Assembly: GCA_039916065.1 (NCBI GenBank)
Contig: JBDSME010000642.1
Location: forward strand, 1-39,057
Length of the DNA: 39,057 nucleotides
Direction: 5' to 3'
Source: Polyangia bacterium
GTDB lineage: Bacteria; Myxococcota_A; Polyangia; Fen-1088
Below, piece after piece: positions 11,166 through 34,696 of this stretch (its first letter is position 1; the number at the start of each line of letters is the position of its first letter). A program made the position numbers and the translations under genes. The notes below the pieces were generated by a model. That model was not told the DNA's origin and did not search any database. It saw nothing but the letters and a program-made list of their open reading frames with translations.

Positions 11166-14100
11166 CTAGGCGGTGACGTGGAATCCGCGACGGCGGCGGG
11201 GACCCGCCTGGGTATCGTTGACGGTGGTGCGGCCAGCGCCGGAAGCGGAAGCCGAAGAAGCGGTCGACCCGGTCGGCGGTTCGCGGTCCGGCCAGCGATC
11301 GCCGGGCTCGGAGTGGCGGTGGCCCCCGCCACCACCGAGCTGGGATCCCGTGTGGGACGAGGTGCCGGCGCCACCAGGGGCGTGACCGGAAGCAGGGCCA
11401 CCACCAGCTGAGTTGTCAGGGCCCGACGACGCAGCCGACGAAGAACCTGACGAAGCCTGGCTGCCCGAGGAGGAACGCGTTGCCGATTCGAAGGTCCCAA
11501 GTGAAATCCCCTCGCCGGCGAGCGCGGCGCGGACCTCGTTCGATCGGATGTCCAGGGTGCGTGAGGCGGCGCCGTCGAACCGCACGTCAACGACGCCGTC
11601 GTGGACCATCAAGTGCAGCGAGAGATCGCCGTCCTTCGCGGTCTCCAGCCGGACGTGGGCGTTCTTGCCCAGCGCCGTGGCATGAAGGGACGGATCGTCG
11701 GCGGCCAGCTCCATCAGGGGACGGGTGCCCGGGGGCCCCTGCTGGATCAGCGAACCCATGGCCCGGGGATCCAGGGCGACCGCCGGCTGAGCGGCCGACA
11801 GCCCGGCGGCGCCCGCGAAGGCTATTTCGGCGACGGTCTTGTCCACGACCGGAGCGGCAGCGCGCGCAATCTCCGCGGTAGCCGCGCTGGACGAGGCCGA
11901 ATGCTGGCCCCGCTGGCGGTCATCCGACGACGCAGATGAGCCGGATGAAGCGGCAGACGAAGCGGCAGTGGCAGCAGGCAACCGCGATAGCCAAGACGTA
12001 TCGGAAGAGGAGTCCGAAAAGACGGACCTCGCGCTGGCAGAAGGACCCCCGGCGTCAGCGCCGGGCAGCAATGCTGACGGGGACGGGCCGGCCAGGGAAG
12101 CGCCGGTGGCGGTGTGAGAAACGGTCGCAGCAGGCAGCGAGGGCGACGGCCCCCCTGGGAATACCAGCGGCCATGGACCGGCATAGGCGATACGACCGCG
12201 CGGCTGCAACTCGACCGCCGCTGAAGAGGCCGGCGCCGCGTTCTTGCCCTCTTCATGGCCCGCGGAGGATGCTTCGCGCGAAGGAGCGGATGCGGCCTTC
12301 ATGAAACGAGGAACGACGGGGGCACCCGGGCGCGATCCCGGCGCGGATGTCTGCGCGAGAATGAAGCGCTGATTCGCGGAAGGAGACGCCTTATCGGTGC
12401 GCGGAGCCGTGTCGAAGAGATTGTGTGATGATACAGAGACGCCAGCGTTGCTCGGCTCCGCAGGGAGCAGCCGGTGGTGCAACTCGAGAACCGCCGCTCG
12501 GACACGGCGACTCTCGAGAGCACGCGGAGGCAGCGGCGACGCCGGCAGCGCGGTAGGGATCGTCGCCGGTGGCATGGTGAGCGCGGACGGCGGCGGCGTT
12601 ATCGACGGAAGCGGCGCGGAGGTGCTGGGGACGGCGCGGACAGGGATCCGGAGTTGGGGAGTGACGGTCGGCGGTGTGCCTGGTGCCATGGGGTGGGCCA
12701 GGGTCTTCGCCGCGACCGGCGCGCCCGACCCGGACCGCCACGGGGAGGCTTGAGGGTTCGGCTGCTTCGACTCGGCGGTCGGCAACGGGGTGTCGCCAGC
12801 GTGAACCGCGGCACCGTGCAGTGAAGGCGCGACGGGCGCGGCGGAAGCTGTCTCGGCGGATTTCGCCGGGGGCGTCTCCGTCAGTTGAGATGACCGGTCC
12901 TGGTGATGGTCGCGATTGTCGGCAGCATGGAGGGCTTGCCCAACGACGGGCTCTTTTTTGGCCGGTTTGGCGTGGGAGCCGGGACCGAATGGCCGTGTCG
13001 GGATCCCCACGACGGCGGCGCCTTGATGAGCGCCGGTCGGGTGGCCCTGGTCCTGGGATGCGAACGGATGCGTCTTGGCGACCGGTAATGGCGTGGCTGT
13101 GTGAGCCTGACGCCGACTCTCGATTGCCACCTCCGCATGGGAAGTGGCCGAAACCGGCGGATTGAGCCGCGACACCACGCGCGGAGCGGAAACCGGCGCC
13201 GCTGCAGAAGCGGGGGTCGAGGGGACGGGCGGCGTCGCGAAGGATGCTGCCGCAGGTTTCGCCGCGAAAAGCCCTTGCGCAGGCGGCCGATCAGACATCC
13301 CGGGAACGCGCGGTGCAGACGGCGTCACCGCGGGTTCGGGTGCCGCTAACGTCGCATGGCGCTGATGGCGAGTCTGCTCGGAAGTCTGAGCGGAAGTCGG
13401 AGCGGAAGTCTGAGCGGAAATCTGATCGGAAGTCGGAGGGGGCTCAACTGCTGGCCGCCGGTCGGTGCCCAACATCGACTGCTCACCCGACTGCTCACCA
13501 GGCGGTTTGCTCCTGGGAGAAGCGCTGACCACAGCGCCCATCGGATCCTTGGTCGGATGCGCAGCCTTGGCCGGCGCGGATGCCTCGGATACGGCTGACG
13601 AGGACGTGCCCCGCGGCCGCACAGCATCACCCGAACGACGGCTCATCTCGGCGCTGGGATGTTGCACCTTGGCCGCTGATGCGGTTGTGACTGACATGGC
13701 CTCAGCGCGCGGAGATCCGGTGATCATCTCCGGTCTGGTGGCCATTGCCCCTGCGGCGGCGGCCGATGGATGCGACACCCCGGCGGGTTCTCTCGCGGGC
13801 AATGCCGATGACAGCAGGGAGGTGGCGTCAGGTTGAGACGAAGAGGCGCTGACAGAATCCGCGGTCGGCTGGTCATGAGATCCATCGTCGCGCTGTCCTG
13901 CCCCTGCCTCGGTGGAGGACGGAACCGAGCCTGGAGCCGTGTCGGCGTTACGCCCCAACAGGGGGGGCAAGGGCAACGAAACATGGTCGCCGCGCTCAAG
14001 TGCCGGTAGGGGCCCATGGGCAGTGGCGGTCTTCCATCGACCGGGAGGTACCGGCATCGAAGGGCTGGCGGATTTCTCGGCGGTTAGCGTGCGGATGACC

Positions 14101-15608: not shown

Positions 15609-16513
15609 CTTTTCGCCTCGGCGGGAAGGGGACGCATCGCAATCTGGGTGGCCAACTCGGCCGCGGTGTCGGGCTTCATCGCCCCCATGATCTTTCCGGC
15701 ATCAACCGGGGGCATTCGCTGCAGCACCGTCGCCGCAAGACGCTTTTCCAGGCGGGTGACGATGGGGGCCGCCTGCTCTGGTTTGATTCCGCGCAGAGCC
15801 TTCGCCAGCACGTCCAGCGGGTTCTTCGCCGGCTTGCCGCCAGGGGCCGCCGCGCCACCGCCGGGACCAGCGGCGCCGTCGCCCCCGTCCTGGGTGAGCA
15901 TCGCCTCGAGCTTCGCCGTCTCTTCGTGCAATGAAACGCGTGCCTTGGTCACCTCTTGCAACATCTGCTCGAGCTTCATCCGCGAGGGAGCCATGGGGTC
16001 GAGCGCTACGGCCCCGCCCTCGCGATGTATCTCTTCACGGAGTCCGGCGATGGTGAGGGGCGGTGGCGAGGCCGGCGATCCGCCCTCGGCCACGTTCGCC
16101 GGAACCTCCGCTGAGCTTTCTGATTTGATGGCCGCGCGCGGCTTCGAACGGGCCTTGGTCTTCCCCTGCCCGGCAGCGGATGCCCCCGCCGGCTCGCTGT
16201 CAGGGGTCTCGGCCGCTGGCGCTTTGCCGGTGGTGGCGGCCGCGGTGTTGCCTGGCTTGCTGGCTTCGGGCTTGTCGGATTTCTTTGAAGCCGTGTCCTT
16301 GATATCCGGCTTGGCCGGCTTGACCGACTCGGCCGGCTTGGCGACCTCTGTCTTGCCGCTGTCTTTCTCACCGGGGGCGGATGGCGCTGCCGCGGCGGGT
16401 GCCCCCTCCTTGGCCGACAAGTCGTTCGGGGCCATACAGAGGAAGACAAATGACGCGGCGGCAACGCCGCGCCACCGCCACCATCCCGCGAGCGGAGAAG
16501 GCGTTCTAACCAC
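15605..16513 (-). CDS. YlxF/MotE-like flagellar protein: N-terminal membrane anchor, Lys/Ala/Pro-rich spacer, short coiled coil, C-terminal MgtE_N-like domain
   Basis: The C-terminal ...ALRGIKPEQAAPIVTRLEKRLAATVLQRMPPVDAGKIMGAMKPDTAAELATQIA resembles MgtE_N/FliG-like repeats. Its position between fliI and fliK matches B. subtilis ylxF. I prefer the GTG at 16511-16513, which overlaps the fliI stop, over the track start at 16591. The start remains uncertain. Confidence 0.65.
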   Translation of the reverse strand: MVRTPSPLAGWWRWRGVAAASFVFLCMAPNDLSAKEGAPAAAAPSAPGEKDSGKTEVAKPAESVKPAKPDIKDTASKKSDKPEASKPGNTAAATTGKAPAAETPDSEPAGASAAGQGKTKARSKPRAAIKSESSAEVPANVAEGGSPASPPPLTIAGLREEIHREGGAVALDPMAPSRMKLEQMLQEVTKARVSLHEETAKLEAMLTQDGGDGAAGPGGGAAAPGGKPAKNPLDVLAKALRGIKPEQAAPIVTRLEKRLAATVLQRMPPVDAGKIMGAMKPDTAAELATQIAMRPLPAEAKR

Positions 16514-17990
16514 GATAGGCCTCCCCCGCCACGCTGGCGATGCCCACCGAGGACTGGGCCGCGGTGAGGGCGGCCGTGGGTGCGCCCCCACCCTCCAGCG
16601 CGCGCTTCAATCCGTCCAGCGTGCTTTGCAGCGAATGACGTTCGTGCGGCGTCTGTTGAAAGAGCGCCCGGATCATGTGCACGCTGCGCAGGGCGCGATC
16701 GACGCGCGGATTCGAACCGGCGACGTACGCTCCCACTTCGATCAAGTCGGCCGACTCGCGGTAGGTGGCAAGCACCTCGCGCGCCTCCATGGCAAGCTGG
16801 CGGTGCTCGGGGGTCACCACGTCCGACATGACGCGGCTGATGCTGGACAGGACGTCGACCGCCGGAAAATGCCCGCCGTCCGCCAGCTTTCGTGACAGCA
16901 CGATGTGGCCGTCCACCGCGGCGCGAACCGCGTCGACGAAGGGATCCGACAGATCGTCGCCCTCCGCCAGGCAGGTGTACATGGCGGTGATGCTGCCGTC
17001 GCCCGCGTCATTGCCAGCCCGTTCCACCAGGCGCGGCAAGGCGGCGAACACCGAAGGCGGATACCCGCGCGAGGTGGGCGGCTCTCCGGCGGCCAGGCCG
17101 ATCTCACGCTGGGCCATCGCGACCCGTGACAAGGAATCGATGAGGAGCAGCACGCGCTTGCCGCGCTCGCGAAAATATTCAGCGACGGCCGTGGCCGCTA
17201 CGGCGGCGCGCACGCGCACCAACGGGGGCTCATCAGCGGTGGCCACCACCACCACGGTGCGCGCCAGGCCCGTCGGTCCCAGATCGCGCTCCACGAATTC
17301 GCGGACCTCGCGACCACGCTCGCCCACCAGCCCCACCACGATCACGTCCACGGCGGCGCCGCGCGCCAGCATCCCCATCAGCACGCTCTTGCCGATGCCG
17401 GGGCCCGCCATGATCCCCACGCGCTGCCCCTCGCCGCAGGTGAGGCAAGCGTCGAGAGATCGAATGCCCAGCACCAGCGGCCGCGAGATGCGCCGGCGGG
17501 TCATCGCGTGCGGAGGGGCCGCGTAGAGTGGCACCCGCCGCGACAGCTCGGGCGGTGGTCCACCATCGACGGGACGCATGGCCGCATCGACCACGCGGCC
17601 CAGCAGCGCCTCTCCCACCGGGATATCGGCGCCCGCGCCGCGCACGTACACCGCGCACCCCTCGCCCACCCCGGCCACATCGCCGAACGGCATCAACAGG
17701 GCTCGGTTCTTCGCGAAGCCAACCACCTCGGCCATCAGCGTCTTGCGCGGTCCGAGCCGGATCTCGCAAGCGGTTCCCACCGCCACCGCGGGCATGGTCG
17801 CCTCCACGATGATTCCCGCCACCCGGGTCACCTTGCCGGCTATGGGCAGCGGTTCGGCGTCGCCGAGCGCCTTGGTGAAACGGGCCAGCAGAGATCGGTC
17901 GGCCCTGTCAGGCCAAGGAGCCGGCGCGGCGCCGCCAGGAACAGATGCGGTCACCCCCAGCGGATCGGACTTGTCGGCCACGTCACTCAT
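16506..17990 (-). CDS. fliI: Flagellum-specific ATP synthase FliI
   Basis: Walker A GPGIGKSVLMG, Walker B RVLLLIDSLSR, and F1/T3SS ATPase-like sequence throughout. Its ATG overlaps the fliH stop (ATGA). Confidence 0.95.
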   Translation of the reverse strand: MSDVADKSDPLGVTASVPGGAAPAPWPDRADRSLLARFTKALGDAEPLPIAGKVTRVAGIIVEATMPAVAVGTACEIRLGPRKTLMAEVVGFAKNRALLMPFGDVAGVGEGCAVYVRGAGADIPVGEALLGRVVDAAMRPVDGGPPPELSRRVPLYAAPPHAMTRRRISRPLVLGIRSLDACLTCGEGQRVGIMAGPGIGKSVLMGMLARGAAVDVIVVGLVGERGREVREFVERDLGPTGLARTVVVVATADEPPLVRVRAAVAATAVAEYFRERGKRVLLLIDSLSRVAMAQREIGLAAGEPPTSRGYPPSVFAALPRLVERAGNDAGDGSITAMYTCLAEGDDLSDPFVDAVRAAVDGHIVLSRKLADGGHFPAVDVLSSISRVMSDVVTPEHRQLAMEAREVLATYRESADLIEVGAYVAGSNPRVDRALRSVHMIRALFQQTPHERHSLQSTLDGLKRALEGGGAPTAALTAAQSSVGIASVAGEAYRG

Positions 17991-22162: not shown

Positions 22163-22600
22163 CTAGCTCCCTCCGTCGGAGACGACATAGCGCAGGATGG
22201 CCAGCTTCTTGCCGGCGGCGCGCGCGCTGGCGCCGTACTGAAGGGAATTTTCCGCCAGCCCCGCCATGGTCCGATCCAGATCGACCTGGTTGCCGTCGAT
22301 GCTGGGGCTGTTGCCCGCGCCATCGCGCACCAGCGTGGTGGCTGCCGTGGTGGCGCTCGATTCGTTCAGGTTGCCGGAGGCCGCGCCGTTCACGCCCAGA
22401 TGGCGTTCATCGGTGGCGGCCATGACACCGGCGTTTGCTTCCTGCTGCGCCGCCGCCATCGCTTGCGAAAAGTCCAGCTCCTTGGGACGGTAGGCGGGTG
22501 TATCCGCGTTGGCGATGTTCCCCGCCAGCACGTTGTGCTCGACCAGGCGAACGTCCAGCGACTGCTGCAGCCGCGTCAGAGTTGTGTCGAAAAGTTTCAT
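22163..22600 (-). CDS. flgB: Flagellar basal-body rod protein FlgB
   Basis: MKLFDTTLTRLQQSLDVRLVEHNVLAGNIANADTPAYRPK… The ATG at 22598-22600 is preceded by GGAGG (22606-22610) with a 5-nt spacer. The track's upstream extension to 22624 would overlap the promoter. Confidence 0.9.
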   Translation of the reverse strand: MKLFDTTLTRLQQSLDVRLVEHNVLAGNIANADTPAYRPKELDFSQAMAAAQQEANAGVMAATDERHLGVNGAASGNLNESSATTAATTLVRDGAGNSPSIDGNQVDLDRTMAGLAENSLQYGASARAAGKKLAILRYVVSDGGS

Positions 22601-22624: not shown

Positions 22625-22640
22625 TGCGAGGGTCGTGCCA
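22625..22640 (-). promoter_or_regulatory. Sigma54-type -24/-12 promoter of the flgB operon: TGGCAC-gaccc-TCGCA
   Basis: Minus-strand sequence is tggcacgaccctcgca. The -24 hexamer matches 6/6, GG-N10-GC spacing is exact, and the -12 element is TCGCA against TTGCA. The predicted +1 is near 22614, just 5' of the flgB SD. The site is 51 nt downstream of a sigma54-activator gene. Confidence 0.6.
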
Positions 22641-22690: not shown

Positions 22691-23860
22691 CTATTGCCCG
22701 GCGGCAACGGCTGCCGACCGAAAGGCGCGCAGCTTGTTGCGAAGCGTGCGCAGGCTGATGCCGAGCCGGCGCGCCGCGCGCGTGCGATTGCCACACTCCA
22801 GCCGCAGTGCCTCCCCGATTGCCAGCCGCTCCAGCGTGGCCAGTTCGGTGGGCCAGCCCGCGGGAAACCGCGGATCCCCGGGGAGGGTCACCTCCGACGG
22901 AGAGTTCGCACCTTCTCGCACGCTCGACGCCGCGGAATCCTCTTCACTGACACCGTCGCTGGTGGTGGTCCACTGCGCGCGTCCCGCCCAGTCGGCCGCG
23001 CCCCCTCCGCCGCGCAGGATTCCTGCCGGCAGGTCCAGATGGTTCAGCTCCAGCACTGGCTCACGGCAGCGCACCAGCGCGCGTTCCAGGATGTTGCCCA
23101 GCTCGCGCACGTTGCCGGGGAAGTTGTAGGCGGCGAGCGCCCGCACGGCGTTGGCGCCCAGCCCCGGCGCCTGGCGCCCCAACGATTGCGCCAGCACCCG
23201 CACCAGCTCGTCCGCCAGGGCGGGGATGTCCTGGCGGCGGTCGCGCAGGGGCGGAAGCTGAATCGGAAAGACATTCAGCCGGTAGTAAAGATCGCCGCGG
23301 AACTCCTTGCGGTCCACCATCTCAAGCAACGACCGGTTGGAGGTGGCGATCACCCGTACGTCGACCGGAATGGGGCGGGTGCCTCCGATGCGATCGATCT
23401 CGCGCTCTTGCAGGACGCGCAGCAACTTCGCCTGCAGCGCCAGCGGCAGCTCCGAGATCTCGTCCAGCAGCAGCGTTCCGCCGTCGGCCTGCTCGATGCG
23501 CCCGATCCGGCGTTGATTGGCCCCGGTGAACGCGCCACGCTCGTGGCCGAAGAGCTCTCCTTCCAGCAGCGCCGCCGGCAGGGCCGCGCAGTTCACCGCC
23601 ACCCAGGGCAAGTCGGCGCGCGGCGAGCAGCGGTGGATGTGGCGCGCCAGGATTTCCTTGCCCGTGCCGCTCTCCCCCAGGATCAGCACCGTGGTGGAGG
23701 CCACAGCCACGTCCTCGGCCGCCGCCAGCACCTCGCGCATGGCGGGACTCTCACCGATGGGAAGCAAAGCCGATCGCGCCACCGACACCGTTTCGCGGCC
23801 CGCGGCCTGCGCCGCCGCGGAACCGGGCCGGACCGGTGAGCGACCAAGAGCCCCGTTCAC
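22691..23860 (-). CDS. Sigma54-dependent transcriptional activator (AAA+ domain plus Fis-type HTH) lacking an N-terminal sensory/receiver domain (EBP1)
   Basis: GESGTGKE Walker A begins about 60 aa from the start. GAFTGA lies at 23519-23536, followed by DVRVIATSN, the GNVRELGN motif and a C-terminal [23 protein letters not shown]. Its GTG start overlaps the upstream stop (GTGA). Confidence 0.9.
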
Positions 23861-25758
23861 CGTGGGGCCTCGGCGTTCTTTTCGACGTTCTGGTCAAAGT
23901 TCTTGGCCAGCGCCGCGGAGCCATCAGATGACCGATCAGGTTTGGTGGTGGCAGCACTGGGACCACGCTCGGCACCACCGGATGGCGATCGCGTCGACCG
24001 CGTTCCTGGTGCCGCGGCCGAGGAATCGCCGGCGCCCGCGCTGCCTCCCCCGGAGCCGGGTGACTGTCCGCGGGCATCGCGGGTTCCGTTCAGTACGCTG
24101 CGCGCCCGCTCCGCGAGCTCGCGCGCACGCTTCAGCTCGTTGACCGTGGACCGAAATTCAACGTCGATGGCCGCCTGTTGGGCGGGAGAGACCTCATCCT
24201 GGGCGGCGGCGGCGGCCAGCGCCTGGAATACGGCATTCCAGCGCGCACCCTGGAGGGCCCCGGCGGACGCAGCGGACGCCGAACTGCCGGCGGCTGACTT
24301 GCCGGAACCGTCGCTGGAACCGGCGGCACCACTCCGCCTGGTGCGCTTGAGCTCACTCGGGGGGAGCCGGCTCTGAGCGTACTCGACCACGATGCGCGCC
24401 CGCGCCCAGTTGTCTCCGTCCAGGAAAGTCTCCGCAGCCAGCAGCAAGTGGTCTGAGAGCTGAGCGTCAGGAACCTGCGGCGCCATCGCCGCCAGCAAAT
24501 TGCCGCCGAAGGCGGGGGCACCCAGGCGCGAGGCCAGCGGCGCCGCCGCCTGCGCCAGGTCCACCGCCATCGGTCCTTTGTCCCACCCGACCAGGGCAAG
24601 ATAAGTCTCCACGAGCTGCTCCAGATATTCCCGCTCCGGGCCTTCCAGCGGCGGCTTCTTCGGCGTGCCGGACTTTCCTTCGCTGCCGCCGCTGCCGCCG
24701 GTGCCGCCGCTGGCCAGCCAGCGCGGGTTGACCGCAGCGTCGGCCGCGCGCATCGCCGCGATCAGGATGCGCCGGCACAGCAACTCACCGTCTTCGCGGC
24801 AGACGCTTGCCGCGCCATGCGCCTTCACCTGACGGGCGATCACCTGTGCCGCTGACGGCAACCGCCCCGCGTAAGCCTCGGCACGCGCCGCCCGAATGGT
24901 GGTTTCGGCACGCAGCGGTTCGGGCATCCCCGTCGTGTCGAAGGCACGCAGCACCTGCTGCGTGGTGGTCAGACAGCGGCCATCAAGCTCACACAACCGC
25001 GCGTCGGCGACCCGGCCGAACATCCCGAAGGAGCCAGCGCGACGGTACCAGCCCGCGGCGGTGATGGGGTCGCCGGTGGCGATGGCCAGGTCACCCAGGC
25101 GAACGCAGGCCATCTGGCGTGCGGTGGTGTCCAGGGCCTGCCGAAAGTGCCCGGCGGCCTCCAGCAAGTGTCCGCCCTTCAGCTCGCACTCGCCGCGCGC
25201 CGCCGGCGACTTGCCGGGACAGCTTTGCCCAAGGCCCACCCGCCAGGGGTCGTAGTGGTACGCGGGAGGAGCATCAGGGCCGGGCCGCCACGGCAAGCCG
25301 CGCAGCTCGTTGATGTCCAGATAGGTTTCGTTGCGTTCGTGAGTGAGCTGGGTCTCGATCCGCGCGCTGCGACAGGTCAACTCGACCACGCCGTACTTCA
25401 GCGCCACCTGGGGACAGAGAAAGCCGGCGTGTTTGAGGACGCGCGCCAGCAGCAGCGCCGCGCTGTCACCTTTACCCGGAGTCAGGCGGATCCGCCGCAC
25501 CAGCGCATCCGTGGAGAGCACGATGGGGCTGCGCGTCCGCGGCAGCGGGATCCGCTCCGTGGTGGCGGAGATGGTCATCCGCAGCAAGCCCTGGGAAGGA
25601 CCGTCTCCTTCCTTGGTGGGCCGCCCGGACCGCACAACTGTACTGGCGGGTGCGGAATTGTCCGCCACCGCCGCGGCCGCTACACGCACCGGCGCCGTTC
25701 CATGGCCCGCCAGGGCCACTCCAGGTATCAGCGCCAGAATTGCGACGTTCCACACCAC
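23857..25758 (-). CDS. Exported protein of unknown function, 633 aa: signal peptide, Cys-containing N-domain, helical/TPR-like middle, Gly/Ser-rich low-complexity tail
   Basis: The N-terminal [20 protein letters not shown] is signal-like. I recognise no family signature. The gene is translationally coupled to EBP1 and lies 39 nt downstream of EBP2. It has a GTG start, so the 5' end is uncertain. Confidence 0.6.
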
Positions 25759-25772
25759 GATGTTCCGGGAAC

Positions 25773-25788
25773 TGCACCCACCGTGCCG
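25773..25788 (-). promoter_or_regulatory. Candidate sigma54-type promoter: CGGCAC-ggtgg-GTGCA
   Basis: The minus strand reads cggcacggtgggtgca with exact GG-N10-GC spacing, in the 39-nt gap between EBP2 and the 633-aa ORF. Caveat: the predicted +1 (~25762) leaves only about 4 nt before the annotated GTG start. Confidence 0.3.
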
Positions 25789-25797
25789 CCGTTCACG

Positions 25798-27285
25798 TCA
25801 CGAGCGTGGCGCGAACGGTGAAGATGGCGCGGAGAACGCCGGCTGATCGTCGCCGACCCCGCGCGCGGCGCCTGCAGAGTCGATCGTCTGACCTTCGGGC
25901 GCTCGACCTTCGAGCGTCAGACCATCGGGGCCCTCGTCGGGGCGATCAGAGGCCCGGCGGCGAAGCTTTTCCACCAGCGTGGTCCGTCCCATGCCCAGCA
26001 ACTTCGCCGCTTCCTTCTTGTTGCTGCCTGTCTGGACCAGCGCCGCGTTGATGTAGCGGTTCTCCAACTCGCGCAGCATGGTGGGCAGGTCAATGGGAAA
26101 CTGCAGGATGGGCGTGGGCGTGTTGCCAGTGCCGTTGGGCGCCGGCGCGTTCGCCAGGTGCGCCGCACGCACCTGAGCGGCCATGTCGGACAGTGAGGCC
26201 AGCGACGCCAGCGACGCCACACCGGGCTCGTTCGTGTCGAGGCTGCCCGGGACAGCAGCGTCGGCGACCAGCGTCGGCTCCGCGGCCGGGAACGACGACG
26301 GGGGCGGCGACGACGCGTCCATCGTCAGTGAGCCCGGCGACCGCTCCAGCAACTCGGCCGGCCATCCCGATTCCCAGCCCGCATCGACGTGGACGTCGGT
26401 AGGCGCGGCGCCGGTATCGACCATCACGGGCGGCGGTGGCATGTCCATGGCCGCGGGGGCGAACAGACTGTTCTCCAGGGCGTCCAGGTGCGGAGCCCGG
26501 ATGCCCAGGGGAAGGTCGGACATGCGAATGACCTCCCCTTCCGCACAGACTGACACGCGCTCGACCAGATTCTCCAACTCGCGCACATTGCCCATCCAGT
26601 CATACGAGGACAGGCATTGCATCACGGCAGCCTCGATCGGGCGCGTTTCGCCGCGGCGGGACCAAAAGAAATGAAACAGGGGACCGATGTCGCCGCGCCG
26701 CTCGCGCAGCGCGGGCAGGCGAACCGGACACACATGGAGCCGGTAATAAAGATCGCTGCGAAATCGTCCGGCCCGGACTTCGTCGGCCAGGTTGCGGTTG
26801 GTGGCGGCGATCAGCCGAAAGTTGGCCGCCACCGATTCGGAGCTGCCGATGGGCTCGTAGGACCGCTCCTGCAACAGGCGCAAGAGCTTCACCTGGAGGG
26901 ACAGCGGCAACTCGCCGATCTCGTCGAGAAACAGCGTGCCCCCCTCGGCCATGGCCACCCGCCCCTTGCGGGAGGAGGCAGCCCCGGTGAAGGCTCCCTT
27001 CACATATCCGAACAGCTCGCTCTCCAGGAGCGTCTCGGGGATGGCGCCGCAGTTCACCGGAACGAACCCGCGGGCCTGCCGCGGGCTGTGGGTATGAATG
27101 AAGCGGGCGAAGACCTCCTTGCCGGTCCCCGTCTCACCGGTGAGCAGGACGGTGGCATCGCTGGCCGCCACGCGGGCGCAGGTCCGCTTGGTATCGACCA
27201 GAGGGCTTTGCGGTCCGTGAACCAGACCGAAGGCGCCCGCTGACGAGGTCGACACCTGGTTCATCGTCGTCGCGGAAAACGCCAC
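25798..27285 (-). CDS. Sigma54-dependent transcriptional activator (AAA+ domain, long Pro/Ala-rich linker, Fis-type HTH) lacking an N-terminal sensory/receiver domain (EBP2)
   Basis: GETGTGKE Walker A begins about 50 aa from the start. GAFTGA lies at 26980-26997, followed by NFRLIATNR, GNVRELEN and a C-terminal NKKEAAKLLGMGRTTLVEKL HTH. GTG at 27285 has AGGAGG 9 nt upstream; an alternative ATG lies at 27264. Confidence 0.9.
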   Translation of the reverse strand: MAFSATTMNQVSTSSAGAFGLVHGPQSPLVDTKRTCARVAASDATVLLTGETGTGKEVFARFIHTHSPRQARGFVPVNCGAIPETLLESELFGYVKGAFTGAASSRKGRVAMAEGGTLFLDEIGELPLSLQVKLLRLLQERSYEPIGSSESVAANFRLIAATNRNLADEVRAGRFRSDLYYRLHVCPVRLPALRERRGDIGPLFHFFWSRRGETRPIEAAVMQCLSSYDWMGNVRELENLVERVSVCAEGEVIRMSDLPLGIRAPHLDALENSLFAPAAMDMPPPPVMVDTGAAPTDVHVDAGWESGWPAELLERSPGSLTMDASSPPPSSFPAAEPTLVADAAVPGSLDTNEPGVASLASLASLSDMAAQVRAAHLANAPAPNGTGNTPTPILQFPIDLPTMLRELENRYINAALVQTGSNKKEAAKLLGMGRTTLVEKLRRRASDRPDEGPDGLTLEGRAPEGQTIDSAGAARGVGDDQPAFSAPSSPFAPRS

Positions 27286-27320: not shown

Positions 27321-27438
27321 GGCCATCGACCGCCCGGCCGTTTTCTTAAGGCACACCGCCGGTTTTGTGGCGCGACGAGGCGGGATCCTGACGCGAAGAA
27401 TCGCCGCTCATTCACTACAGAACAGACCCGAGCAACCG

Positions 27439-29031
27439 ATGATCCTTTCCGTCGCGCGCGCCAGCGTGTACCCCCTCCCCATGGACGAATCTGCGCCCTC
27501 GAGGCTCGACCCATCAGCTGAGTCGTCGTCCGATCGGATTTCCGATCGGATTTCCGAGCGGATTTCCGAGCGGATTTCCGAACGCGTCTCGGAACGTCCG
27601 TTGCCACGGCCGCGGCGGGTACCTTTGCTGGGACGGTTGAGACTGCTCGGTGCTGGACGGTGGCATCACCCCATCCGCGATCGCCCGGCGGCCTGTTTCA
27701 TCGCGGTGCGCGGGCGCACCGGCGTGGGGAAGAGCACCATTGCCGCCAATCTGGCCGTGGCCCTGGCGGGATTGCGTTCGCGCGTGGTGCTGATCGACCT
27801 CGACCTCAGGCACCCCACCCAGCACCAGCTCTTCGGGATCGCCACGCCGGTGCACGGACTGAAGGCTCTGCTTCGCGAGCAGATCGACACCCTGGAGCAG
27901 GCGCTGACGCCGACGCCGGTGCGCAACCTCCACCTGGTCTCCGGTGATGGTGCGGTCCTGCCCAACGGGGCCGCCGCGGTGGAGCAGCAGCGACGCCTGC
28001 TGGCCCAGATCTGGGAGCTCGACGCGGATGTGGTGGTGGCTGACGTGGGGTCCGACTCTGGCGGCGAGCTGGTGGACCTGTTCGAGATGGGTGCCATTCG
28101 CGTGGTGGTCTCCGCTCCTGATTCCCGTTCCATCCGCCGCGGCTACAACTTCTTCAAGGAACAGGTGGTGCGCGAGATCGAACACGTCGCCGGCGGCACC
28201 TCCGAGGGAGCGCTGCTGGTGGGGGCGCTGAAATCGCCGCACGCGCGTCCCATGAATGAGCTGCTGGCGCGCCTGGGCGGCAAGCCAAACCTTCACGCCG
28301 CCACCCTGCAAGCCCTGCAGGGGTTCACCGGTCGCCTGATCGGGAACCGCATCCGCAACCACGCCGAGGCCGATCTGATGCACGCGGCGTCGCGCCTGCT
28401 GGCGGACTACCTGGGAATCAACGTGCCCGTGCTCGGCACCCTGGAAACCAGCCTGCAGATCGACGCCACGCGCATCTCTGGAAAGCCGCTGCTCCTCGGC
28501 GCCGGGATCGACCGCAACGTGCGTCTGTTTCATTCGATGGCCGCACAGCTCTTGACAGAGGGCGAGGAGTCAGAGGCGCCGCGCTGTGTGACTCGATCGG
28601 TCGCCCCCTCCCTCACCCCCTCCCTCTCCCCTGCCCCGACCGGCGCCGGCGCAACGGTGCGCGCGCCCGTGGTGCCGGACGCCGACGGCGCCGACCTGCC
28701 AAGCTCCCTCGGTGGCTACATGCGCCGTCACCCCCGCCATCCTGTGGACTGGCATGCCCAGTTCCGTTCGGATTCGGGAAAGGAGACTCCGGTGCGCGTT
28801 TTCGAGGTGTCGCAATCAGGCGCCTCCATCGAGACGCTCCCTGGTCTGGACAACGGCGACCAAGGCCTGCTCATCTTCTGGCAGGTGGCCCAGCAGCCGC
28901 AAGTGCGCGTCACCGTCAAGGATGCCCGCCGGCCCCTGGGGCGCGCCGGTCTGGAGTTCATCGACACAGGGTCCGAGGAGGTCGGCGCGCGCCTGGTGGA
29001 GCTGGCCGCGCACGAACGCAGCAATATGTAG
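27439..29031 (+). CDS. MinD/ParA/FleN(FlhG)-like P-loop ATPase fused to a C-terminal PilZ domain. Start uncertain: 27313, 27439, 27481 or in-frame TTG 27625/27637
   Basis: P-loop GRTGVGKST lies at 27712-27738, followed by VVLIDLDL and ADVVVADVG (ParA-type Walker A'/B). After a linker, the PilZ signatures RRHPR (28723-28737) and EVSQSG (28804-28821) occur. Confidence 0.75.
   Translation: MILSVARASVYPLPMDESAPSRLDPSAESSSDRISDRISERISERISERVSERPLPRPRRVPLLGRLRLLGAGRWHHPIRDRPAACFIAVRGRTGVGKSTIAANLAVALAGLRSRVVLIDLDLRHPTQHQLFGIATPVHGLKALLREQIDTLEQALTPTPVRNLHLVSGDGAVLPNGAAAVEQQRRLLAQIWELDADVVVADVGSDSGGELVDLFEMGAIRVVVSAPDSRSIRRGYNFFKEQVVREIEHVAGGTSEGALLVGALKSPHARPMNELLARLGGKPNLHAATLQALQGFTGRLIGNRIRNHAEADLMHAASRLLADYLGINVPVLGTLETSLQIDATRISGKPLLLGAGIDRNVRLFHSMAAQLLTEGEESEAPRCVTRSVAPSLTPSLSPAPTGAGATVRAPVVPDADGADLPSSLGGYMRRHPRHPVDWHAQFRSDSGKETPVRVFEVSQSGASIETLPGLDNGDQGLLIFWQVAQQPQVRVTVKDARRPLGRAGLEFIDTGSEEVGARLVELAAHERSNM
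27529..27600. repeat. 12-bp tandem repeat, 4 good and 2 degenerate units of near-palindromic TCCGA(T/G)CGGATT (rotated: TCGGATTTCCGA)
   Basis: Units are tccgatcggatt x2, tccgagcggatt x2, tccgaacgcgtc and tcggaacgtccg. If translated they give SDRISDRISERISERISERVSERP. GC3 is low for this genome, so the array may be non-coding leader or promoter DNA. Confidence 0.85.
27590..27605 (+). promoter_or_regulatory. Candidate sigma54-type promoter on the plus strand at the 3' edge of the 12-mer array: CGGAAC-gtccg-TTGCC
   Basis: GG-N10-GC spacing is exact (GG 27591-92, GC 27603-04). If this promoter is used, the ATPase-PilZ gene would start at an in-frame TTG (27625 or 27637), roughly 25-30 aa before the P-loop. 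Confidence 0.25.
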
Positions 29032-30176: not shown

Positions 30177-31289
30177 CTAAGGGAATGACGGAGGCGCAAC
30201 CTTTTCGGATTTCTTGCGAGCAGAACCGAGGTGCCACCGGCGCCGACGCCGCGCCAGGAGGAAGGTGGCCAGCATGCCCGCGCCGATCGCGCCCCCGCTG
30301 CCCACGGTGTCGGTCGGGCTCGTTCCGCCAAGCGAGCAACCGCTCGGACTGTCGCCCGACGCGCTATTGCCCGCTTTTCCACCGGTCGAGCCGACGGCAC
30401 CACCGGTGGCTGACGGGGAGCCGCCGCCCGTTGCCAGGCCGCCGCTGCCCTGAGCGCCGCCAGTCTCCATGACCGGTGCGGCGGCTCCGCCGGAGCCGTC
30501 GCCGGTGCTGCCGGGCGCGCCGCCAGTCCCCTCGACGGTGCCGCCATCGGACGTTCCGGAGCGCCCTGCCGTGCCGGCGCCCGCCCCGCCGCCGCCCCCG
30601 GTCCCCGCACCCCCTCCTCCGTTGCCACCCGAGCCCGCGGCCGGCCCGTCGCCGGAACCACCATCCAGCATCGCGATTCCGCCGGCGGGGACGTAGGTGC
30701 TGCCGGCCGCCACGAGGGTCACGATGACGTGAAGGTCGGTGGGCATGTAGAGCGCGGAGGTAGCGGCGCCGACATTCTCAGGCGCCACCTTCACGTTCTT
30801 GGTGTCCTTGAGCAGCAGGGCGACCTTGACGATTCCCTTGTCCCACGGGATGGGCCCGGGCTTGTAGAACCGGGAAAAGGGCGTGTCCCATTCGTACAGG
30901 CCGGTGGTCTTGTACGGTTTCGAGATGTCCACGCAGCCGTAGTTCTGCGTGGCCTCGAAGCACACCTGAAAACAGGTATCCGTCGTGGTATTCGGCTTGG
31001 TTTTCACCTCCAGCCGGACGTGCGCCGAACCATTCGAGTAATCGGCTGGAGAGACCAAGTTTTTGGGCGTCCCTGCTGCCGGGCTGACGCGGTAGTGCGA
31101 GTCCATCGTCGTGGTCGCTGAGTGCGTGTAGACCACGTCGGCAACGACGATCTGGACGGCCTGGGCCGAACGGCCGGTGGTGAGGACGGTCCCCAGGATT
31201 GTCCCGATGACTCCCGCTGTCATCCAAGAGCGGGATTTCCAAGAAGTGGCGGATTTCCAGGAAAGTCGCTTCCTTTGCACGGTCAGCAT
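30177..31289 (-). CDS. Exported protein of unknown function with a Gly-rich linker and MYXO-CTERM-like tail (SGCS…AGMLATFLLARRRRR) followed by 19 extra residues
   Basis: The signal-like MTAGVIGTILGTVLTTGRSAQA gives an alternative start at ATG 31223. The Cys codon lies at 30336-30338 and RRRRR at 30237-30251. The gene ends 6 nt upstream of the next gene. Confidence 0.6.
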   Translation of the reverse strand: MLTVQRKRLSWKSATSWKSRSWMTAGVIGTILGTVLTTGRSAQAVQIVVADVVYTHSATTTMDSHYRVSPAAGTPKNLVSPADYSNGSAHVRLEVKTKPNTTTDTCFQVCFEATQNYGCVDISKPYKTTGLYEWDTPFSRFYKPGPIPWDKGIVKVALLLKDTKNVKVAPENVGAATSALYMPTDLHVIVTLVAAGSTYVPAGGIAMLDGGSGDGPAAGSGGNGGGGAGTGGGGGAGAGTAGRSGTSDGGTVEGTGGAPGSTGDGSGGAAAPVMETGGAQGSGGLATGGGSPSATGGAVGSTGGKAGNSASGDSPSGCSLGGTSPTDTVGSGGAIGAGMLATFLLARRRRRWHLGSARKKSEKVAPPSFP

Positions 31290-31314
31290 GTTACCGTTAA
31301 CTTCTGCCGAATTG

Positions 31315-31403
31315 GGAAGTTTTCCTCATCGCCTGACTTTTTACGGATCTGGAAAGTTTTCATCGTCGACCTGCCCTTTCCTGCCCTGAGAAGTTTCTCA
31401 TTG
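31315..31403. repeat. Three imperfect ~16-bp direct repeats (GGAAGTTTTCCTCATCG / GGAAAGTTTTCATCGTCG / GAGAAGTTTCTCATTG) spaced 36-37 bp apart in an AT-rich divergent intergenic region
   Basis: Seen directly at 31315-31331, 31351-31368 and 31388-31403. Each contains a GGAA/GAGAA…TTCC/TTCTC near-palindrome. Confidence 0.7.
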
Positions 31404-31420
31404 ACCGGAAATTACAAGTC

Positions 31421-31443
31421 GGGAATCGGAAATCGGAAATCGG
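31421..31443. repeat. Heptamer tandem repeat, GGAAATC about x3
   Basis: The sequence is gggaatcggaaatcggaaatcgg. Confidence 0.8.
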
Positions 31444-31523
31444 CCGCCCTTAACTCAAACTCCTGGCGACGACGGACGAAAATAGAACAGGGACCGATCT
31501 ACGAGCCGCGGAGGCCATTCAAA

Positions 31524-33314
31524 ATGAGGCGCAGCGACTTTTTTCTATCGTGCCGCGGCATCGCCCAGGCGACCGGAGGGTTCGCCTTGTGGGCGCTGCT
31601 CTCGTCCTGCACGGGGGTTGTGAGCCCCATCGGGGGATCCCCCGCCAGCCAGGGACCGCCCGGAGGCGGGGGCGGCGTCCCCGGCCAGCAACCCACCGGA
31701 AATCCTCTGCCCCCCAAAGGTGGCAATGTTGGCACTGGTGGTTCCGCGGGAGATACGTCCCCCCCGACGTTGCCGTCCGCGACGCCCGTCGCTCTGAATT
31801 GCACCGCGCCGGCCATGGGGGTGTCTCCCCTCCGGCGTCTCAGCCATCGGGAGTACGACAACGCGATCGCCGATTTGCTTGGCGACAAGAGTCACCCCTC
31901 CGCGATGTTCCCGGAAGATACCGAGATCGGCCTGTTCGATAACTCGGCGGCGGCGCAAACGGTTCCCGTGCTCCTGGCGGGCCAGTACCTCGACAGCGCG
32001 GTCCGCCTCGCCAATGTTGCTGCCAACCTGCCCACGCTGGTCGGGTGTGATTTCGCCGGTACCGCCGGTGCCACCTGCGCCCGCACGTTCATCGGGCGCT
32101 TCGGGCGGCGCGCCTTTCGCCGCCCCGTCACGGCGGACGAGACCACGCGGCTGGGGGCCATCTTCGACAAGGCAGGGGCCGCCGACAAGGCGGTGGGCAT
32201 TCGCGCTGTCATTGCCGCCTTGCTCGCCTCGCCGCACTTCATCTACCGCCCCGAATTTGGCACCGCCGATACGACCATTCCCGGCACGCACCGCTTGACT
32301 CAATTCGAACAGGCCTCTCGTCTGGCATCCCTGCTGTGGGCGGCGGGCCCGGACGACATGCTCCTCGACGAGGCCCAGGCAGGCCGTCTCGCCACGCGTG
32401 AGCAGATCGCTACTCAAGCGCGGCGAATGCTGTCCGACCCGCGGGCGCGGGCGGCCACAACGGCTTTCTACGATCAATGGTTGGGGCTGAAGATGCTCGA
32501 CGTGGCCACCAAGGACACGGCGGTATACAAGTTCGACGACGCGTTGCAGACGGCGATGCGCGAGGAAACGGAACGCTTCATCGACAACGTCATCTGGACC
32601 GACGACGCCAAGCTTTCAACACTGCTGGGCGCTCCCTACTCGTTCTTGAACGCACCGCTGGCCACCTTGTACGGCGTGCAGGGGGTAACCAGCGCCACCA
32701 CATATACCAAGGTGATGCTGGATCCGGCGCAGCGCGCAGGCTTGTTGACGCAGGCAAGCTTCCTGACGGCGTTCGCCCGGCCCGACAACAGCTCGCCGGT
32801 CAAGCGCGGCAACTGGATCCGCAGGCGGCTGCTCTGCGGAGACCTGCCCGATCCCCCGAACAACGTCCCCCAGTTGCCCGAGATCATGGCCGGTGTCTCC
32901 AACCGCGACCGGTTCGCCATGCATGTTAGCGCTCCGGCTTGCGCACCCTGCCATTCTCAGATCGATGGCCTGGGATTCGGCCTGGAAGCCTACGACGGCA
33001 TTGGCCGTTACCGAACCGAAGACCGGGGCCTCAAGGTCGATGCGGCGGGGGTCATTTCCCAGACCGTGGATATCAACGGAGCCTACAACGGGGCCATGGA
33101 GCTGTCGGCGCTCCTCGGTCGCAGTACGCAGGTGCGTGACTGCGTTCCAACCCAGTGGCTTCGCTACGCTCTGGCGCGCCGAGAGGGCGCCGACGACGAC
33201 TGCGCCCTGAAGACGGTGCGTGAGGCCTTCACGGCGTCCGGTGGCAATCTGAAGGAGCTCATGGTGACCCTGACGCAGACCGATGCGTTCATGAACTACA
33301 AGCCGGCCAACTAG
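31524..33314 (+). CDS. DUF1585/1587/1588/1592/1595-family protein (planctomycete-type PSD/PSCyt modules), lipoprotein-like N-terminus
   Basis: I place the start at MRRSDFFLSCRG…LLSSC. Family-typical strings are present: RRLSHREYDNAIADLLGD, FIGRFGRRAFRRPVT, FYDQWLGL, LLTQASFLTAFARPDNSSPVKRGNWIRRRLLC and CAPCHSQIDGLGFGLEAYDGIGRYR. The track's 5' extension to 31122 overlaps the divergent gene and the intergenic DNA. Confidence 0.7.
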   Translation: MRRSDFFLSCRGIAQATGGFALWALLSSCTGVVSPIGGSPASQGPPGGGGGVPGQQPTGNPLPPKGGNVGTGGSAGDTSPPTLPSATPVALNCTAPAMGVSPLRRLSHREYDNAIADLLGDKSHPSAMFPEDTEIGLFDNSAAAQTVPVLLAGQYLDSAVRLANVAANLPTLVGCDFAGTAGATCARTFIGRFGRRAFRRPVTADETTRLGAIFDKAGAADKAVGIRAVIAALLASPHFIYRPEFGTADTTIPGTHRLTQFEQASRLASLLWAAGPDDMLLDEAQAGRLATREQIATQARRMLSDPRARAATTAFYDQWLGLKMLDVATKDTAVYKFDDALQTAMREETERFIDNVIWTDDAKLSTLLGAPYSFLNAPLATLYGVQGVTSATTYTKVMLDPAQRAGLLTQASFLTAFARPDNSSPVKRGNWIRRRLLCGDLPDPPNNVPQLPEIMAGVSNRDRFAMHVSAPACAPCHSQIDGLGFGLEAYDGIGRYRTEDRGLKVDAAGVISQTVDINGAYNGAMELSALLGRSTQVRDCVPTQWLRYALARREGADDDCALKTVREAFTASGGNLKELMVTLTQTDAFMNYKPAN

Positions 33315-33356
33315 GCAACCTGCAACTTGGCAACTGGCAACTTGGTAACTGGCACC
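33314..33356. repeat. Six tandem 7-8-bp units, consensus (T)TGGCAAC, in the 62-bp spacer between the DUF1592-family and DUF1552 genes
   Basis: The units are ggcaacc, tgcaact, tggcaac, tggcaact, tggtaac, tggcacc. Confidence 0.85.
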
Positions 33357-33376
33357 TCGGAACCGGATAGAAGGTA

Positions 33377-34696
33377 ATGCCCATGAACAAACAATGGCTG
33401 GCTTCGAGACGCGCTCTGCTGGGAATACTCGGGGCTGGTGGCGCCGCGGCAATGTTTCCCTTCCGAAAAGCGGTCGCTGCGCCTCCCACCCGGTTCATCG
33501 TCGTCCACGTCCCGGAGGGAATGTGGACGAGCGCCAAGCGGCCCGAGGCGGGCGCAACCACCCTCGGACCCATCTTTGGGCCGCTCGACCCGTATCGTTC
33601 GCAGATCACCGTGCTGAACAACCTGAACATGCAGTCGCGCGACCATGGCCCTGGGGGCGACGGGCACAAACGCGGCGTGCCCCACATGTTGACCTGCATC
33701 GAGATGGCGGACACCAACAATGCTGGTGGACCGTCTATAGACCAGCGCATCGCCCAGTCCATCGGCGCCGGCCTGAAATTCGACTCACTCCAGTTCGGAG
33801 TGCGAATTATTTACGGTGACACCAATTCGAAGTGTATCTGGTCGGCGCCGTCGCGGGTGGTTCCTTCCATGCAGAGCCCCTTTGATGCCTACAAGCGCAT
33901 CTTCGGCGACGCCGTCATGCCGGCGCCGGCCCCCGGCGGTGGAACGGCCACGCCGCCCTTCGATATGAAGAAGAGCGCCATGGACTTTGCGCTCGCTGAC
34001 CTGACCTCCTTGCGTACGCGGTTGCCGGTCAGCGATCGCGATCGGCTGGATTCGTACCAGGACTCCCTGCGGGACATCGAGAAACGCCTGTCCACCGTGG
34101 CGCCACCGGTAACCACGGGCGGCGCTTGCGCCGCGCCGACGTTGTCGGCGGCAATCGACGTCAAGAATGTCGCGAACTATCCAACCATCGGCAAGCTGCA
34201 GATGGATCTGATGGTGGCGGCGCTGCAATGCGGTCTCACGCGGGTGGCCAGTCTGCAGTGGGGAAACTCCAACGACCAGTGCACCTATCCGTGGCTGGGC
34301 ATCAATGCGCTCGGTCACGACCTGGCGCACAACAATGGGAACGTGGACTCCTCGGGCTCGAAAAAGCAGATGGTGTTCAACTGGTATGCGCAGCAGTTCG
34401 CGTACCTGCTGGGCAAACTGCAGGGCACGGCGGAGGGCACGGGGACCATGCTCGACAATACCGTCATCCTGTGGGTGTCGGAGTTCAGCGATGGCAACGC
34501 CCATCGGGCGGACAAGCTGCTCTGGCTGCTGATGGGAAACGCCAACGGATACTTCAAGCAGGGACGAGTTCTGGATATGGGGGGGCGTTCCGTCAGCGAT
34601 CTGCACGTCTCGTTGTTGAACGCGTTCGGGATCCAGGACAAGACCTTTGGCAATCCGGCCTATTGCAAGGGACCGCTGACCGCATTGCAGGGTTGA
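33377..34696 (+). CDS. DUF1552-family protein with twin-arginine-type signal
   Basis: MPMNKQWLASRRALLGILGAGGAAAMF is Tat-like. RFIVVHVPEGMW, GHDLAHNNG and VILWVSEFSDGNAH are typical of DUF1552 proteins, which pair with DUF1592-family genes. Confidence 0.7.
   Translation: MPMNKQWLASRRALLGILGAGGAAAMFPFRKAVAAPPTRFIVVHVPEGMWTSAKRPEAGATTLGPIFGPLDPYRSQITVLNNLNMQSRDHGPGGDGHKRGVPHMLTCIEMADTNNAGGPSIDQRIAQSIGAGLKFDSLQFGVRIIYGDTNSKCIWSAPSRVVPSMQSPFDAYKRIFGDAVMPAPAPGGGTATPPFDMKKSAMDFALADLTSLRTRLPVSDRDRLDSYQDSLRDIEKRLSTVAPPVTTGGACAAPTLSAAIDVKNVANYPTIGKLQMDLMVAALQCGLTRVASLQWGNSNDQCTYPWLGINALGHDLAHNNGNVDSSGSKKQMVFNWYAQQFAYLLGKLQGTAEGTGTMLDNTVILWVSEFSDGNAHRADKLLWLLMGNANGYFKQGRVLDMGGRSVSDLHVSLLNAFGIQDKTFGNPAYCKGPLTALQG

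Follow-up and report, generated by a model that had tools for sequence, protein, structure and literature searches.

The early flagellar gene cluster of an uncultured Polyangia bacterium (Myxococcota) lies on the minus strand of a contig of 39,057 nt (JBDSME010000642.1, assembly GCA_039916065.1), which was analysed over its whole length and is referred to here as the window. Two genes for sigma54-dependent enhancer-binding proteins (EBPs) without sensory domains, EBP2 and EBP1, flank the gene of an exported protein without an assigned family, here called X, and the order of genes on the minus strand is EBP2, X, EBP1, flgB, flgC, fliE, fliF, fliG, fliH and fliI. We propose that the first three genes form the regulatory head of the flgB operon, with a transcriptional cascade that would run from EBP2 via X-EBP1 to flgB, and that X is a periplasmic part of the flagellum, a proposal that we regard as moderately probable. 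It is the simplest reading because three promoter-like elements are arranged in series, EBP1 belongs to a predicted sigma54-dependent unit and both EBPs are sensor-less.

In the proposed cascade, a sigma28-type promoter would drive EBP2, and EBP2 would activate a sigma54 promoter in front of X (P_X), from which X and EBP1 would be transcribed as one bicistronic message with coupled translation. Either by itself or jointly with EBP2, EBP1 would then activate the sigma54 promoter of flgB (P_flgB) and with it the early structural genes; we infer from sequence which EBP acts on which promoter. Both EBPs would be controlled mainly by the amount made, and a cytoplasmic partner, a fusion of an ATPase with a PilZ domain in the window and an FHA-only protein elsewhere, may add further control. 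X would be an early-expressed periplasmic component of the flagellum, for example a motor scaffold or an assembly factor, since sigma54 control, export and a scaffold-type fold point in this direction.

Two activators and three promoter-like elements

EBP1 (22691-23860, minus strand, 389 aa) carries Sigma54_activat at residues 35-201 (E 4e-69), AAA_lid_14 at 206-276 and HTH_8 at 340-380. EBP2 (25798-27285, minus strand, 495 aa) carries Sigma54_activat at residues 27-188 (E 3e-68), the lid at 194-266 and, after a long linker, HTH_8 at 404-443. Both are sigma54 activators by PF00158, by their Walker A and B motifs and by GAFTGA (the translations show LLDEI/FLDEI and GETGTGKE/GAFTGA), and both end in a Fis-type helix-turn-helix (HTH; PF02954, E about 1.7e-10 each). 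A first-pass annotation of the window had described both proteins as AAA+ and HTH domains only, with Walker A and GAFTGA motifs, and Pfam together with the translations confirmed this as well as the coordinates. PspF and HrpR/HrpS have the same AAA+ and HTH layout without an N-terminal regulatory domain, and are controlled in trans or by their expression level. EBP1 and EBP2 fall into this sensor-less subgroup, their AAA+ domains opening at residues 35 and 27, respectively.

A sensor domain hidden upstream of either EBP was considered and rejected. In both open reading frames (ORFs) the start codon is the first one after the in-frame stop, which upholds the earlier view that no upstream start would reveal a receiver domain. 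The intergenic space is also too short: EBP2 and the divergent gene are only about 195 nt apart and X is immediately adjacent to EBP1, and therefore no hidden REC, GAF, PAS or FHA domain is possible. Orthologues called elsewhere (358-415 aa) hold only the same three domains. The GTG start of EBP2 is preceded by AGGAGG at 9 nt, and the N-terminus MA(L/I/F)(S/P) is kept among its orthologues. In NCBIfam, EBP1 best matched Caulobacter FlbD (NF050807) over profile positions 121-443 of 454, i.e., with the receiver missing. Neither EBP belongs to the FlbD family, as they score 357 bits (EBP1) and 268 bits (EBP2) against a cut-off of 750 bits and have no receiver. The two EBPs are 49% identical over the AAA+ core, and the recognition-helix sequences of their HTH_8 domains differ; therefore, they are not recent duplicates and probably bind separate sites.

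Related loci were compared with the window proteins by BLASTP on stop-to-stop ORFs; 17 loci came from GTDB species representatives (one per species) and further ones from metagenome contigs (L and P numbers below; L001 and L012 are one contig). X lies directly 5' of flgB-flgC-fliE-fliF-fliG in every locus examined, down to an X identity of 33-38%, and an EBP2-type sensor-less gene lies directly 5' of X wherever the left flank is available. The 5' neighbours of EBP2 and the orientation of fliH/fliI vary while the EBP-X-flgB order stays. EBP1 is present in the window and in L001/L012, L003-L005, L008-L011, L013-L016 and L019. It is missing in L002, L006, L007, L017, L020 and the P0215 contig, and L018 retains only a C-terminal remnant. 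The earlier expectation of a triad of EBP, X and EBP conserved next to flgB was therefore not borne out; because EBP1 is missing in several lineages, EBP-X-flgB is the conserved, ancestral unit and the triad a derived state.

A sigma54 promoter was predicted right upstream of flgB (22625-22640, minus strand, TGGCACGACCCTCGCA). flgB itself (22163-22600, minus strand), the first gene of the operon, was assigned by Pfam, and its start is probably ATG 22600 and not 22624, as homologue alignments open at ORF residue 9; GGAGG lies 6 nt 5' of this ATG. The motif YGGCA[CT]G-N4-T[CG]GCA is found at this position in 18/18 flgB-containing loci, whether or not EBP1 is present. A second sigma54 promoter, P_X, was predicted in the gap between EBP2 and X (25773-25788, minus strand, CGGCACGGTGGGTGCA). 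Here, all 16 loci with separated EBP2 and X, the distant L002 and L020 included, carry CGGCA[CT]-N5-[GC]TGCA. P_X lies 9 to 274 nt away from the EBP2 stop, its internal spacer also varies and the surrounding intergenic DNA is unconserved. Sigma54 promoters were called as GG-N10-GC in a TGGCAC-N5-TTGCW-like context kept at orthologous positions, which holds for both P_flgB and P_X. Matches of this type within the window alone are at chance level (10 observed, 11.7 expected), so that P_X is credible because of its conservation across loci. The flgB promoter had been pointed out by the first-pass annotation, as had the spacing of 39 nt between the EBP2 stop and the X start and the overlap of the X stop with the EBP1 start (GTGA), and all three stand. 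By this overlap EBP1 is translationally coupled to X, and gene calls in L001 show the same 4-nt overlap.

P_X is absent only in L006 (around 9870) and L007 (around 9857). In both loci EBP1 is gone and the stop codon of EBP2 overlaps with the start codon of X (GTGA or TGATG), so X is probably co-expressed with EBP2 instead. In the L009-L011 clade, a Shine-Dalgarno sequence, GGAG, and the start codon come after P_X. In L001, three tandem 22-nt units lie upstream of X (9914-9979), each with the sigma54 motif CGGCACGGTCGCTGC.

The third element, of sigma28 (FliA) type, lies 64 nt 5' of the EBP2 start (27325-27349, minus strand, TTAAGAAAACGGCCGGGCGGTCGAT). Its pattern, TTAAG-N14-GTCGAT, has one exact match in the window. 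In the 765 kb of loci DNA in which motifs were counted, the relaxed form T[ATC]AAG-N14-15-[GT][CT]CGAT occurs 18 times, and 15 of these occurrences sit 30-74 nt 5' of EBP2, one per locus. The textbook sigma28 consensus is TAAA-N15-GCCGATAA, and the likeness to it suggests that sigma28/FliA uses this element. A sigma54 promoter in front of EBP2 (AGGAAC-N5-TTGCT) was considered and rejected, as a deletion of 1 nt breaks the GG-GC spacing in L004 and L005. Neither sigma70-like promoters nor intrinsic terminators were found in the gaps.

Protein X: export and predicted fold

X (23857-25758, minus strand, 633 aa) is a real gene. It has no match in Pfam or NCBIfam. A word-indexed search found 76 clusters of close relatives, every one annotated as hypothetical. 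When 1.84 billion representatives were searched exhaustively with a hidden Markov model, 401 clusters (at 50% identity) passed E<=1e-3 and 196 of them E<=1e-30. The typical length in the family is about 445 aa, with a range of 445-633 aa. Relatives that carry a label are from Myxococcales or Polyangia metagenome-assembled genomes, apart from one binned as Burkholderiaceae, and no family member was found outside a flagellar cluster. Two of the matched sequences, P0077 and P0081, match the X profile in two stretches each, consistent with two tandem X modules. In P0141, an X module is fused to Sigma54_activat, which is probably a frameshift or a gene-call fusion at the overlapping X-EBP1 junction.

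To judge from its alignment, X is almost certainly exported by the Sec route to the periplasm, with four disulfides between successive cysteines. Of 205 family members, 194 have a hydrophobic segment at the N-terminus, with AXA-type sites visible in the alignment; the predicted signal peptide of X (about 25708-25758, minus strand) consists of this segment and AXA, followed by a disordered stretch in the AlphaFold 2 (AF2) model. The first-pass annotation had considered that this N-terminus might be an uncleaved membrane anchor. The hydrophobic region is short and is followed by the AXA motif, and therefore an anchor can be dismissed. Eight cysteines are each kept in at least 194 of the 205 members, and the median member has no further cysteine. 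Their loss is sequential and pairwise: 255 and 261 are lost jointly in 8 sequences and 319 and 327 jointly in 4 or 5, and single losses are rare. Paired loss points to local disulfides and thus to an extracytoplasmic protein. The signs of Sec export and the paired cysteines are both alignment features.

The AF2 model of X, built on the family alignment, has a mean predicted local distance difference test (pLDDT) score of 81.4, with a core above 90. It predicts a lineage-specific alpha/beta domain (about 25303-25593, residues 55-151), a strongly conserved linker containing CPG, a solenoid of stacked helix pairs resembling tetratricopeptide repeats (TPRs; about 24067-25206, residues 184-563) and a disordered tail (23860-24066), all on the minus strand. 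The solenoid assignment to the TPR/alpha-alpha class agrees with profile searches, in which the X family matched consensus TPR proteins in the PDB with E 3e-21. Relatives of X have sub-threshold TPR matches in Pfam, matches to TPR_2 and TPR_16 occur among them, and Foldseek of the full model against the PDB returned TPR proteins only, of a generic kind. Membership in a known family was thus rejected, as Pfam, NCBIfam, PDB profile search and full-model Foldseek gave generic TPR matches only. The earlier statement that X has no recognisable family holds for Pfam and NCBIfam families, but not for the generic TPR-like signal.

The alpha/beta domain modelled alone reached a pLDDT of 85.5 and had no significant match in the PDB (best E 0.11; 9hmf outside the top 50). 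A beta-sandwich like that of Campylobacter PflA, which binds PflB, was therefore rejected for the N-terminal domain, which is predicted to be alpha/beta and has no significant structural match. With the whole of X, Foldseek placed PflA chain 9hmf_K at rank 5, behind designed TPR proteins (E 1.6e-3, TM 0.24, root-mean-square deviation 34), and the X-family profile search of the PDB gave no PflA match. Sel1 and MotX profiles did not match X, and the only Sel1 match in the PDB search had E 4.5. Location, fold class and gene position taken together suggest a structural role for X.

Cytoplasmic partners and rival explanations

The gene divergent from EBP2 (27481-29031, plus strand) encodes a P-loop ATPase of MinD/ParA (FlhG-like) type that ends in a PilZ domain. 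Its N-terminal part matches ParA/CbiA in Pfam, and its C-terminal 123 aa match PilZ (PF07238) with E 1.1e-5 and 26.1 bits against a cut-off of 22.5. The PilZ motif RxxxR is present as RRHPR and xSxxG as VSQSG, read EVSQSG with E replacing D/N, and the domain is thus predicted to be of the type that binds cyclic di-GMP (c-di-GMP). The start at ATG 27481 was placed on the basis of ATGGACGA, which is kept in L003-L005. The gene lies divergently 5' of EBP2 in L001/L012, L003-L008, L011, L014, L016 and L019. Homologues come from the same lineage only, and FlhG is a frequent IMG name among relatives; in NCBIfam the protein has no match to an FlhG model. Among its PDB matches, those with the longest aligned stretch include FleN (5j1j, E 8e-6, about 28 bits) and FlhG (4rz2, about 28 bits), although P-loops of bacterial tyrosine kinases (BY-kinases) score higher. 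The Walker A motif, GRTGVGKS, is a variant without the signature lysine of KGGxGK[ST]. In L002 (3820-8648) and L020 (2056-5068), an FHA-only protein directly 5' of the EBP takes the place of the ATPase-PilZ gene, with a Pkinase-HDOD gene nearby. It is tempting to speculate that different cytoplasmic inputs are plugged into the same EBP, lineage by lineage. In the 5' coding region of the ATPase-PilZ gene, four to five tandem 12-nt units (TCCGAKCGGATT, with the palindrome TCCGATCGGA inside; 27529-27590) encode SDRI/SERI repeats of an N-terminal extension. These repeats were considered as enhancer sites and rejected, being coding and absent from all related loci.

Two alternatives concern the way in which the EBPs are used. 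The ATPase-PilZ protein could be their trans controller, binding the AAA+ domain of EBP2 as FleN does that of FleQ and sensing c-di-GMP through PilZ; this would be compatible with the cascade, and we consider it possible but somewhat doubtful. The gene adjoins EBP2 divergently in most loci of the window's clade, it combines a MinD/ParA P-loop with a PilZ domain that has both motifs, relatives carry the name FlhG, FleN and FlhG structures are among the longest-aligned matches, and elsewhere another signalling protein stands in the same position. FleN is described as an established antiactivator of a flagellar EBP, FleQ, to whose AAA+ domain it binds (PMC8528422). However, the similarity to FleN and FlhG is weak and exceeded by that to BY-kinases, the Walker A motif lacks its signature lysine, and FlhG-type proteins also set flagellar number or placement without touching EBPs. 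The other alternative replaces serial action by a hetero-oligomer of EBP1 and EBP2 as the real activator of flgB, by analogy with FleQ/FleT and HrpR/HrpS, and seems rather unlikely. Two sensor-less EBPs at one locus would suit it, as would the position of EBP1, like that of fleT, in a predicted sigma54-dependent unit heading early flagellar genes, and the consensus of the flgB promoter does not change with the presence of EBP1, which would fit a constant participation of EBP2. It is at odds with AAA+ cores of only limited identity and without sign of recent duplication, with the HTH_8 domains that both EBPs keep and whose recognition helices are unlike, and with the dispensability of EBP1 in several lineages. 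FleT, for its part, reportedly has no DNA-binding domain.

The remaining alternatives concern X. The first-pass annotation had proposed a flagellar control module with X as its envelope-side input, i.e., a sensor for an assembly checkpoint whose periplasmic state would be relayed across the membrane to the EBPs. A conserved head of the early operon with sensor-less EBPs was indeed found, but the input role of X gained no support, and we regard X as a sensor as quite improbable. The persistence of an EBP gene directly 5' of X through considerable divergence speaks for such a sensor, and so does the frequent translational coupling of X with one of the EBPs, namely EBP1 in the window and L001 and EBP2 in L006 and L007. 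Moreover, some trans input would be expected for sensor-less EBPs, and the best match of EBP1 is FlbD, whose activity is described as set by the trans-acting FliX (PMC3930126). However, X is exported and disulfide-bonded and its N-terminus is no anchor, so that X could not contact an EBP directly. The other component that had been suggested to relay the signal was also not found: no transmembrane relay gene is encoded or conserved at the locus among the loci examined. In addition, the conserved sigma54 promoter on X itself marks it as an output, and thus X appears to be acted on by the EBPs instead of feeding into them. The members seemingly belong to one lineage, and their gene order may partly be inherited. 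As a trans controller of the EBPs, the ATPase-PilZ protein is more plausible than X. If X were nevertheless the periplasmic arm of a checkpoint, relayed via the membrane-supramembrane (MS) ring, the export gate or a membrane protein, with ATPase-PilZ adding a cytoplasmic c-di-GMP input, the lasting adjacency of EBP and X and their frequent translational coupling would be explained; this combination, too, appears improbable. A role of X outside flagella, as a general periplasmic TPR chaperone or envelope factor that lies beside flgB by inherited order, is very improbable. No homology to known flagellar proteins was found by Pfam, NCBIfam, PDB profile search or Foldseek, and all taxonomically labelled members were seen as coming from a single lineage. 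Against this stand the exact EBP-X-flgB position, kept over 30-40% divergence amid rearranged surroundings, a conserved sigma54 promoter of the flgB type and the fact that no member was found outside flagellar clusters. In line with the earlier proposal, X was neither assigned to a known family nor separated from flagellar genes, the synteny with flgB being kept in every locus examined.

Several observations weigh against the cascade from EBP2 via X-EBP1 to flgB with X as a periplasmic flagellar component. In the window's clade, P_X would leave a leader of only about 4 nt, without a Shine-Dalgarno sequence before the GTG GTG of X, while GGAG is suitably spaced in other clades. A sigma28-type promoter on top of a flagellar hierarchy is unusual, and the motif might instead be bound by a transcription factor or belong to a feedback loop. 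Neither rpoN nor fliA is in the window. No EBP-binding sites were identified 5' of either sigma54 promoter, and palindromes and k-mers shared upstream of both, considered as candidate sites, were rejected as GC-rich noise. Loci without EBP1 imply that EBP2 alone can suffice, and the role of EBP1 is therefore uncertain. The tight linkage of EBP and X could reflect a regulatory relationship. Finally, the N-terminal domain of X is unlike the beta-sandwich of PflA, the match to PflA is no better than that to designed TPR proteins, and no cultured member of the X family is known.

Known systems, significance and neighbouring genes

Two-EBP flagellar hierarchies and sensor-less EBPs are already known. 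By analogy, the closest known system is Fla1 of Rhodobacter (Cereibacter) sphaeroides, where the fleT-fliEFGHIJ operon is switched on by FleQ and sigma54, and class III genes are activated by FleQ/FleT afterwards (PMC7277832). In both systems, a master EBP would activate a sigma54 operon at the head of early flagellar genes, a second EBP would be encoded within it, and both EBPs would serve further promoters; with a predicted sigma54 promoter before X-EBP1, followed by flgB-fliI, the second EBP gene of the window is placed as in the FleQ/FleT type. In contrast to FleQ/FleT, both EBPs described here have an HTH, a periplasmic TPR protein leads the second-tier unit, a sigma28-type element precedes the gene of the master EBP and part of the lineage does without the second EBP. 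The window resembles Pseudomonas FleQ/FleN and Vibrio FlrA/FlhG in that a gene for a MinD-type ATPase accompanies a flagellar master EBP, with c-di-GMP as a possible input. However, FleQ carries a FleQ domain at its N-terminus and is itself a c-di-GMP-binding protein, whereas the EBP described here has no N-terminal domain and PilZ is on the ATPase.

Caulobacter FlbD/FliX is a further point of comparison, as EBP1 matches the AAA+ and HTH domains of FlbD and a trans factor other than a kinase would be expected. FlbD has a receiver and EBP1 has none, and the score is under the family cut-off. FliX is said to be a small protein acting on FlbD in the cytoplasm, unlike X with its 445-633 aa in the family and its export. 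FliX is described as binding FlbD (PMC3930126). Compared with PspF and HrpRS, the EBPs of the window have a flagellar target regulon, and neither a PspA-like nor an HrpV-like gene is present at the locus.

Campylobacter PflA consists of a signal peptide, a beta-sandwich, a linker and 16 TPRs, and PflA and PflB are periplasmic TPR motor scaffolds (PMC12222027; PDB 9hmf). X shares with PflA, the TPR spoke of the motor scaffold in Campylobacter and Helicobacter, a signal peptide, a small N-terminal domain, a linker and a TPR solenoid, and both are periplasmic and associated with the flagellum, in the case of X by prediction. It differs in having about half as many repeats, four predicted disulfides and no sequence similarity. 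As modelled, X is thus like PflA in layout and location, yet cannot be counted as a member of its family. Sel1-like repeat proteins, among them Helicobacter Hcp and Vibrio MotX, are exported and have helical repeats with local disulfides, and MotX is part of the flagellar stator ring. X is likewise predicted to be helical, exported and disulfide-bonded, but does not belong with them by profile.

To our knowledge, flagellated Myxococcota are known from metagenomes only. Flagellar genes in uncultured Myxococcota were noted previously (bioRxiv 10.1101/2021.07.06.451402). This study defines the head of the early flagellar operon in these bacteria, with three promoter predictions. To judge from the gene content and the predicted promoters, what is new is the combination of two sensor-less EBPs, the second optional, with a sigma28-type element on top, together with the X family and the FlhG-like ATPase-PilZ fusion. 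The operon head would represent a two-tier sigma54 cascade made wholly of sensor-less activators. X would stand for a sizeable family, so far uncharacterised, whose members are periplasmic TPR proteins with disulfide bonds and a tie to flgB; they are candidates for a new motor or assembly component, as PflA/PflB were for Campylobacter. The fusion of an FlhG-like ATPase to PilZ offers a possible c-di-GMP route to flagellar gene expression or number. Current models are not overturned; known themes are extended to a new lineage.

The G+C content is 64-71% across the window, in which no Rfam families were found. After fliI, the minus strand encodes a 328-aa protein, a 1480-aa protein and, by Pfam, flgD, flgE, flbD, motA and motB, down to 6900. 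The 328-aa protein (15605-16591) has C-terminal matches to MgtE_N and FliG_M, both sub-threshold, and occupies the same place after fliI in related loci; it could be kin of the FlbB/MotE/FlgY E-ring proteins (reviewed in PMC13023049). The 1480-aa ORF (11166-15608) has no Pfam or NCBIfam match and lies at the position usual for fliK (hook-length control), between the gene in the fliJ position and flgD; about 80 of its C-terminal residues (1296-1375) alone are kept across other loci. The flanks hold a 1296-aa multi-haem cytochrome c/PKD protein (800-4690, minus strand) and a gene pair with DUF1592/DUF1588/DUF1552 (PSD/PSCyt) domains (31122-34696, plus strand), both apparently unrelated to the flagellar cluster.

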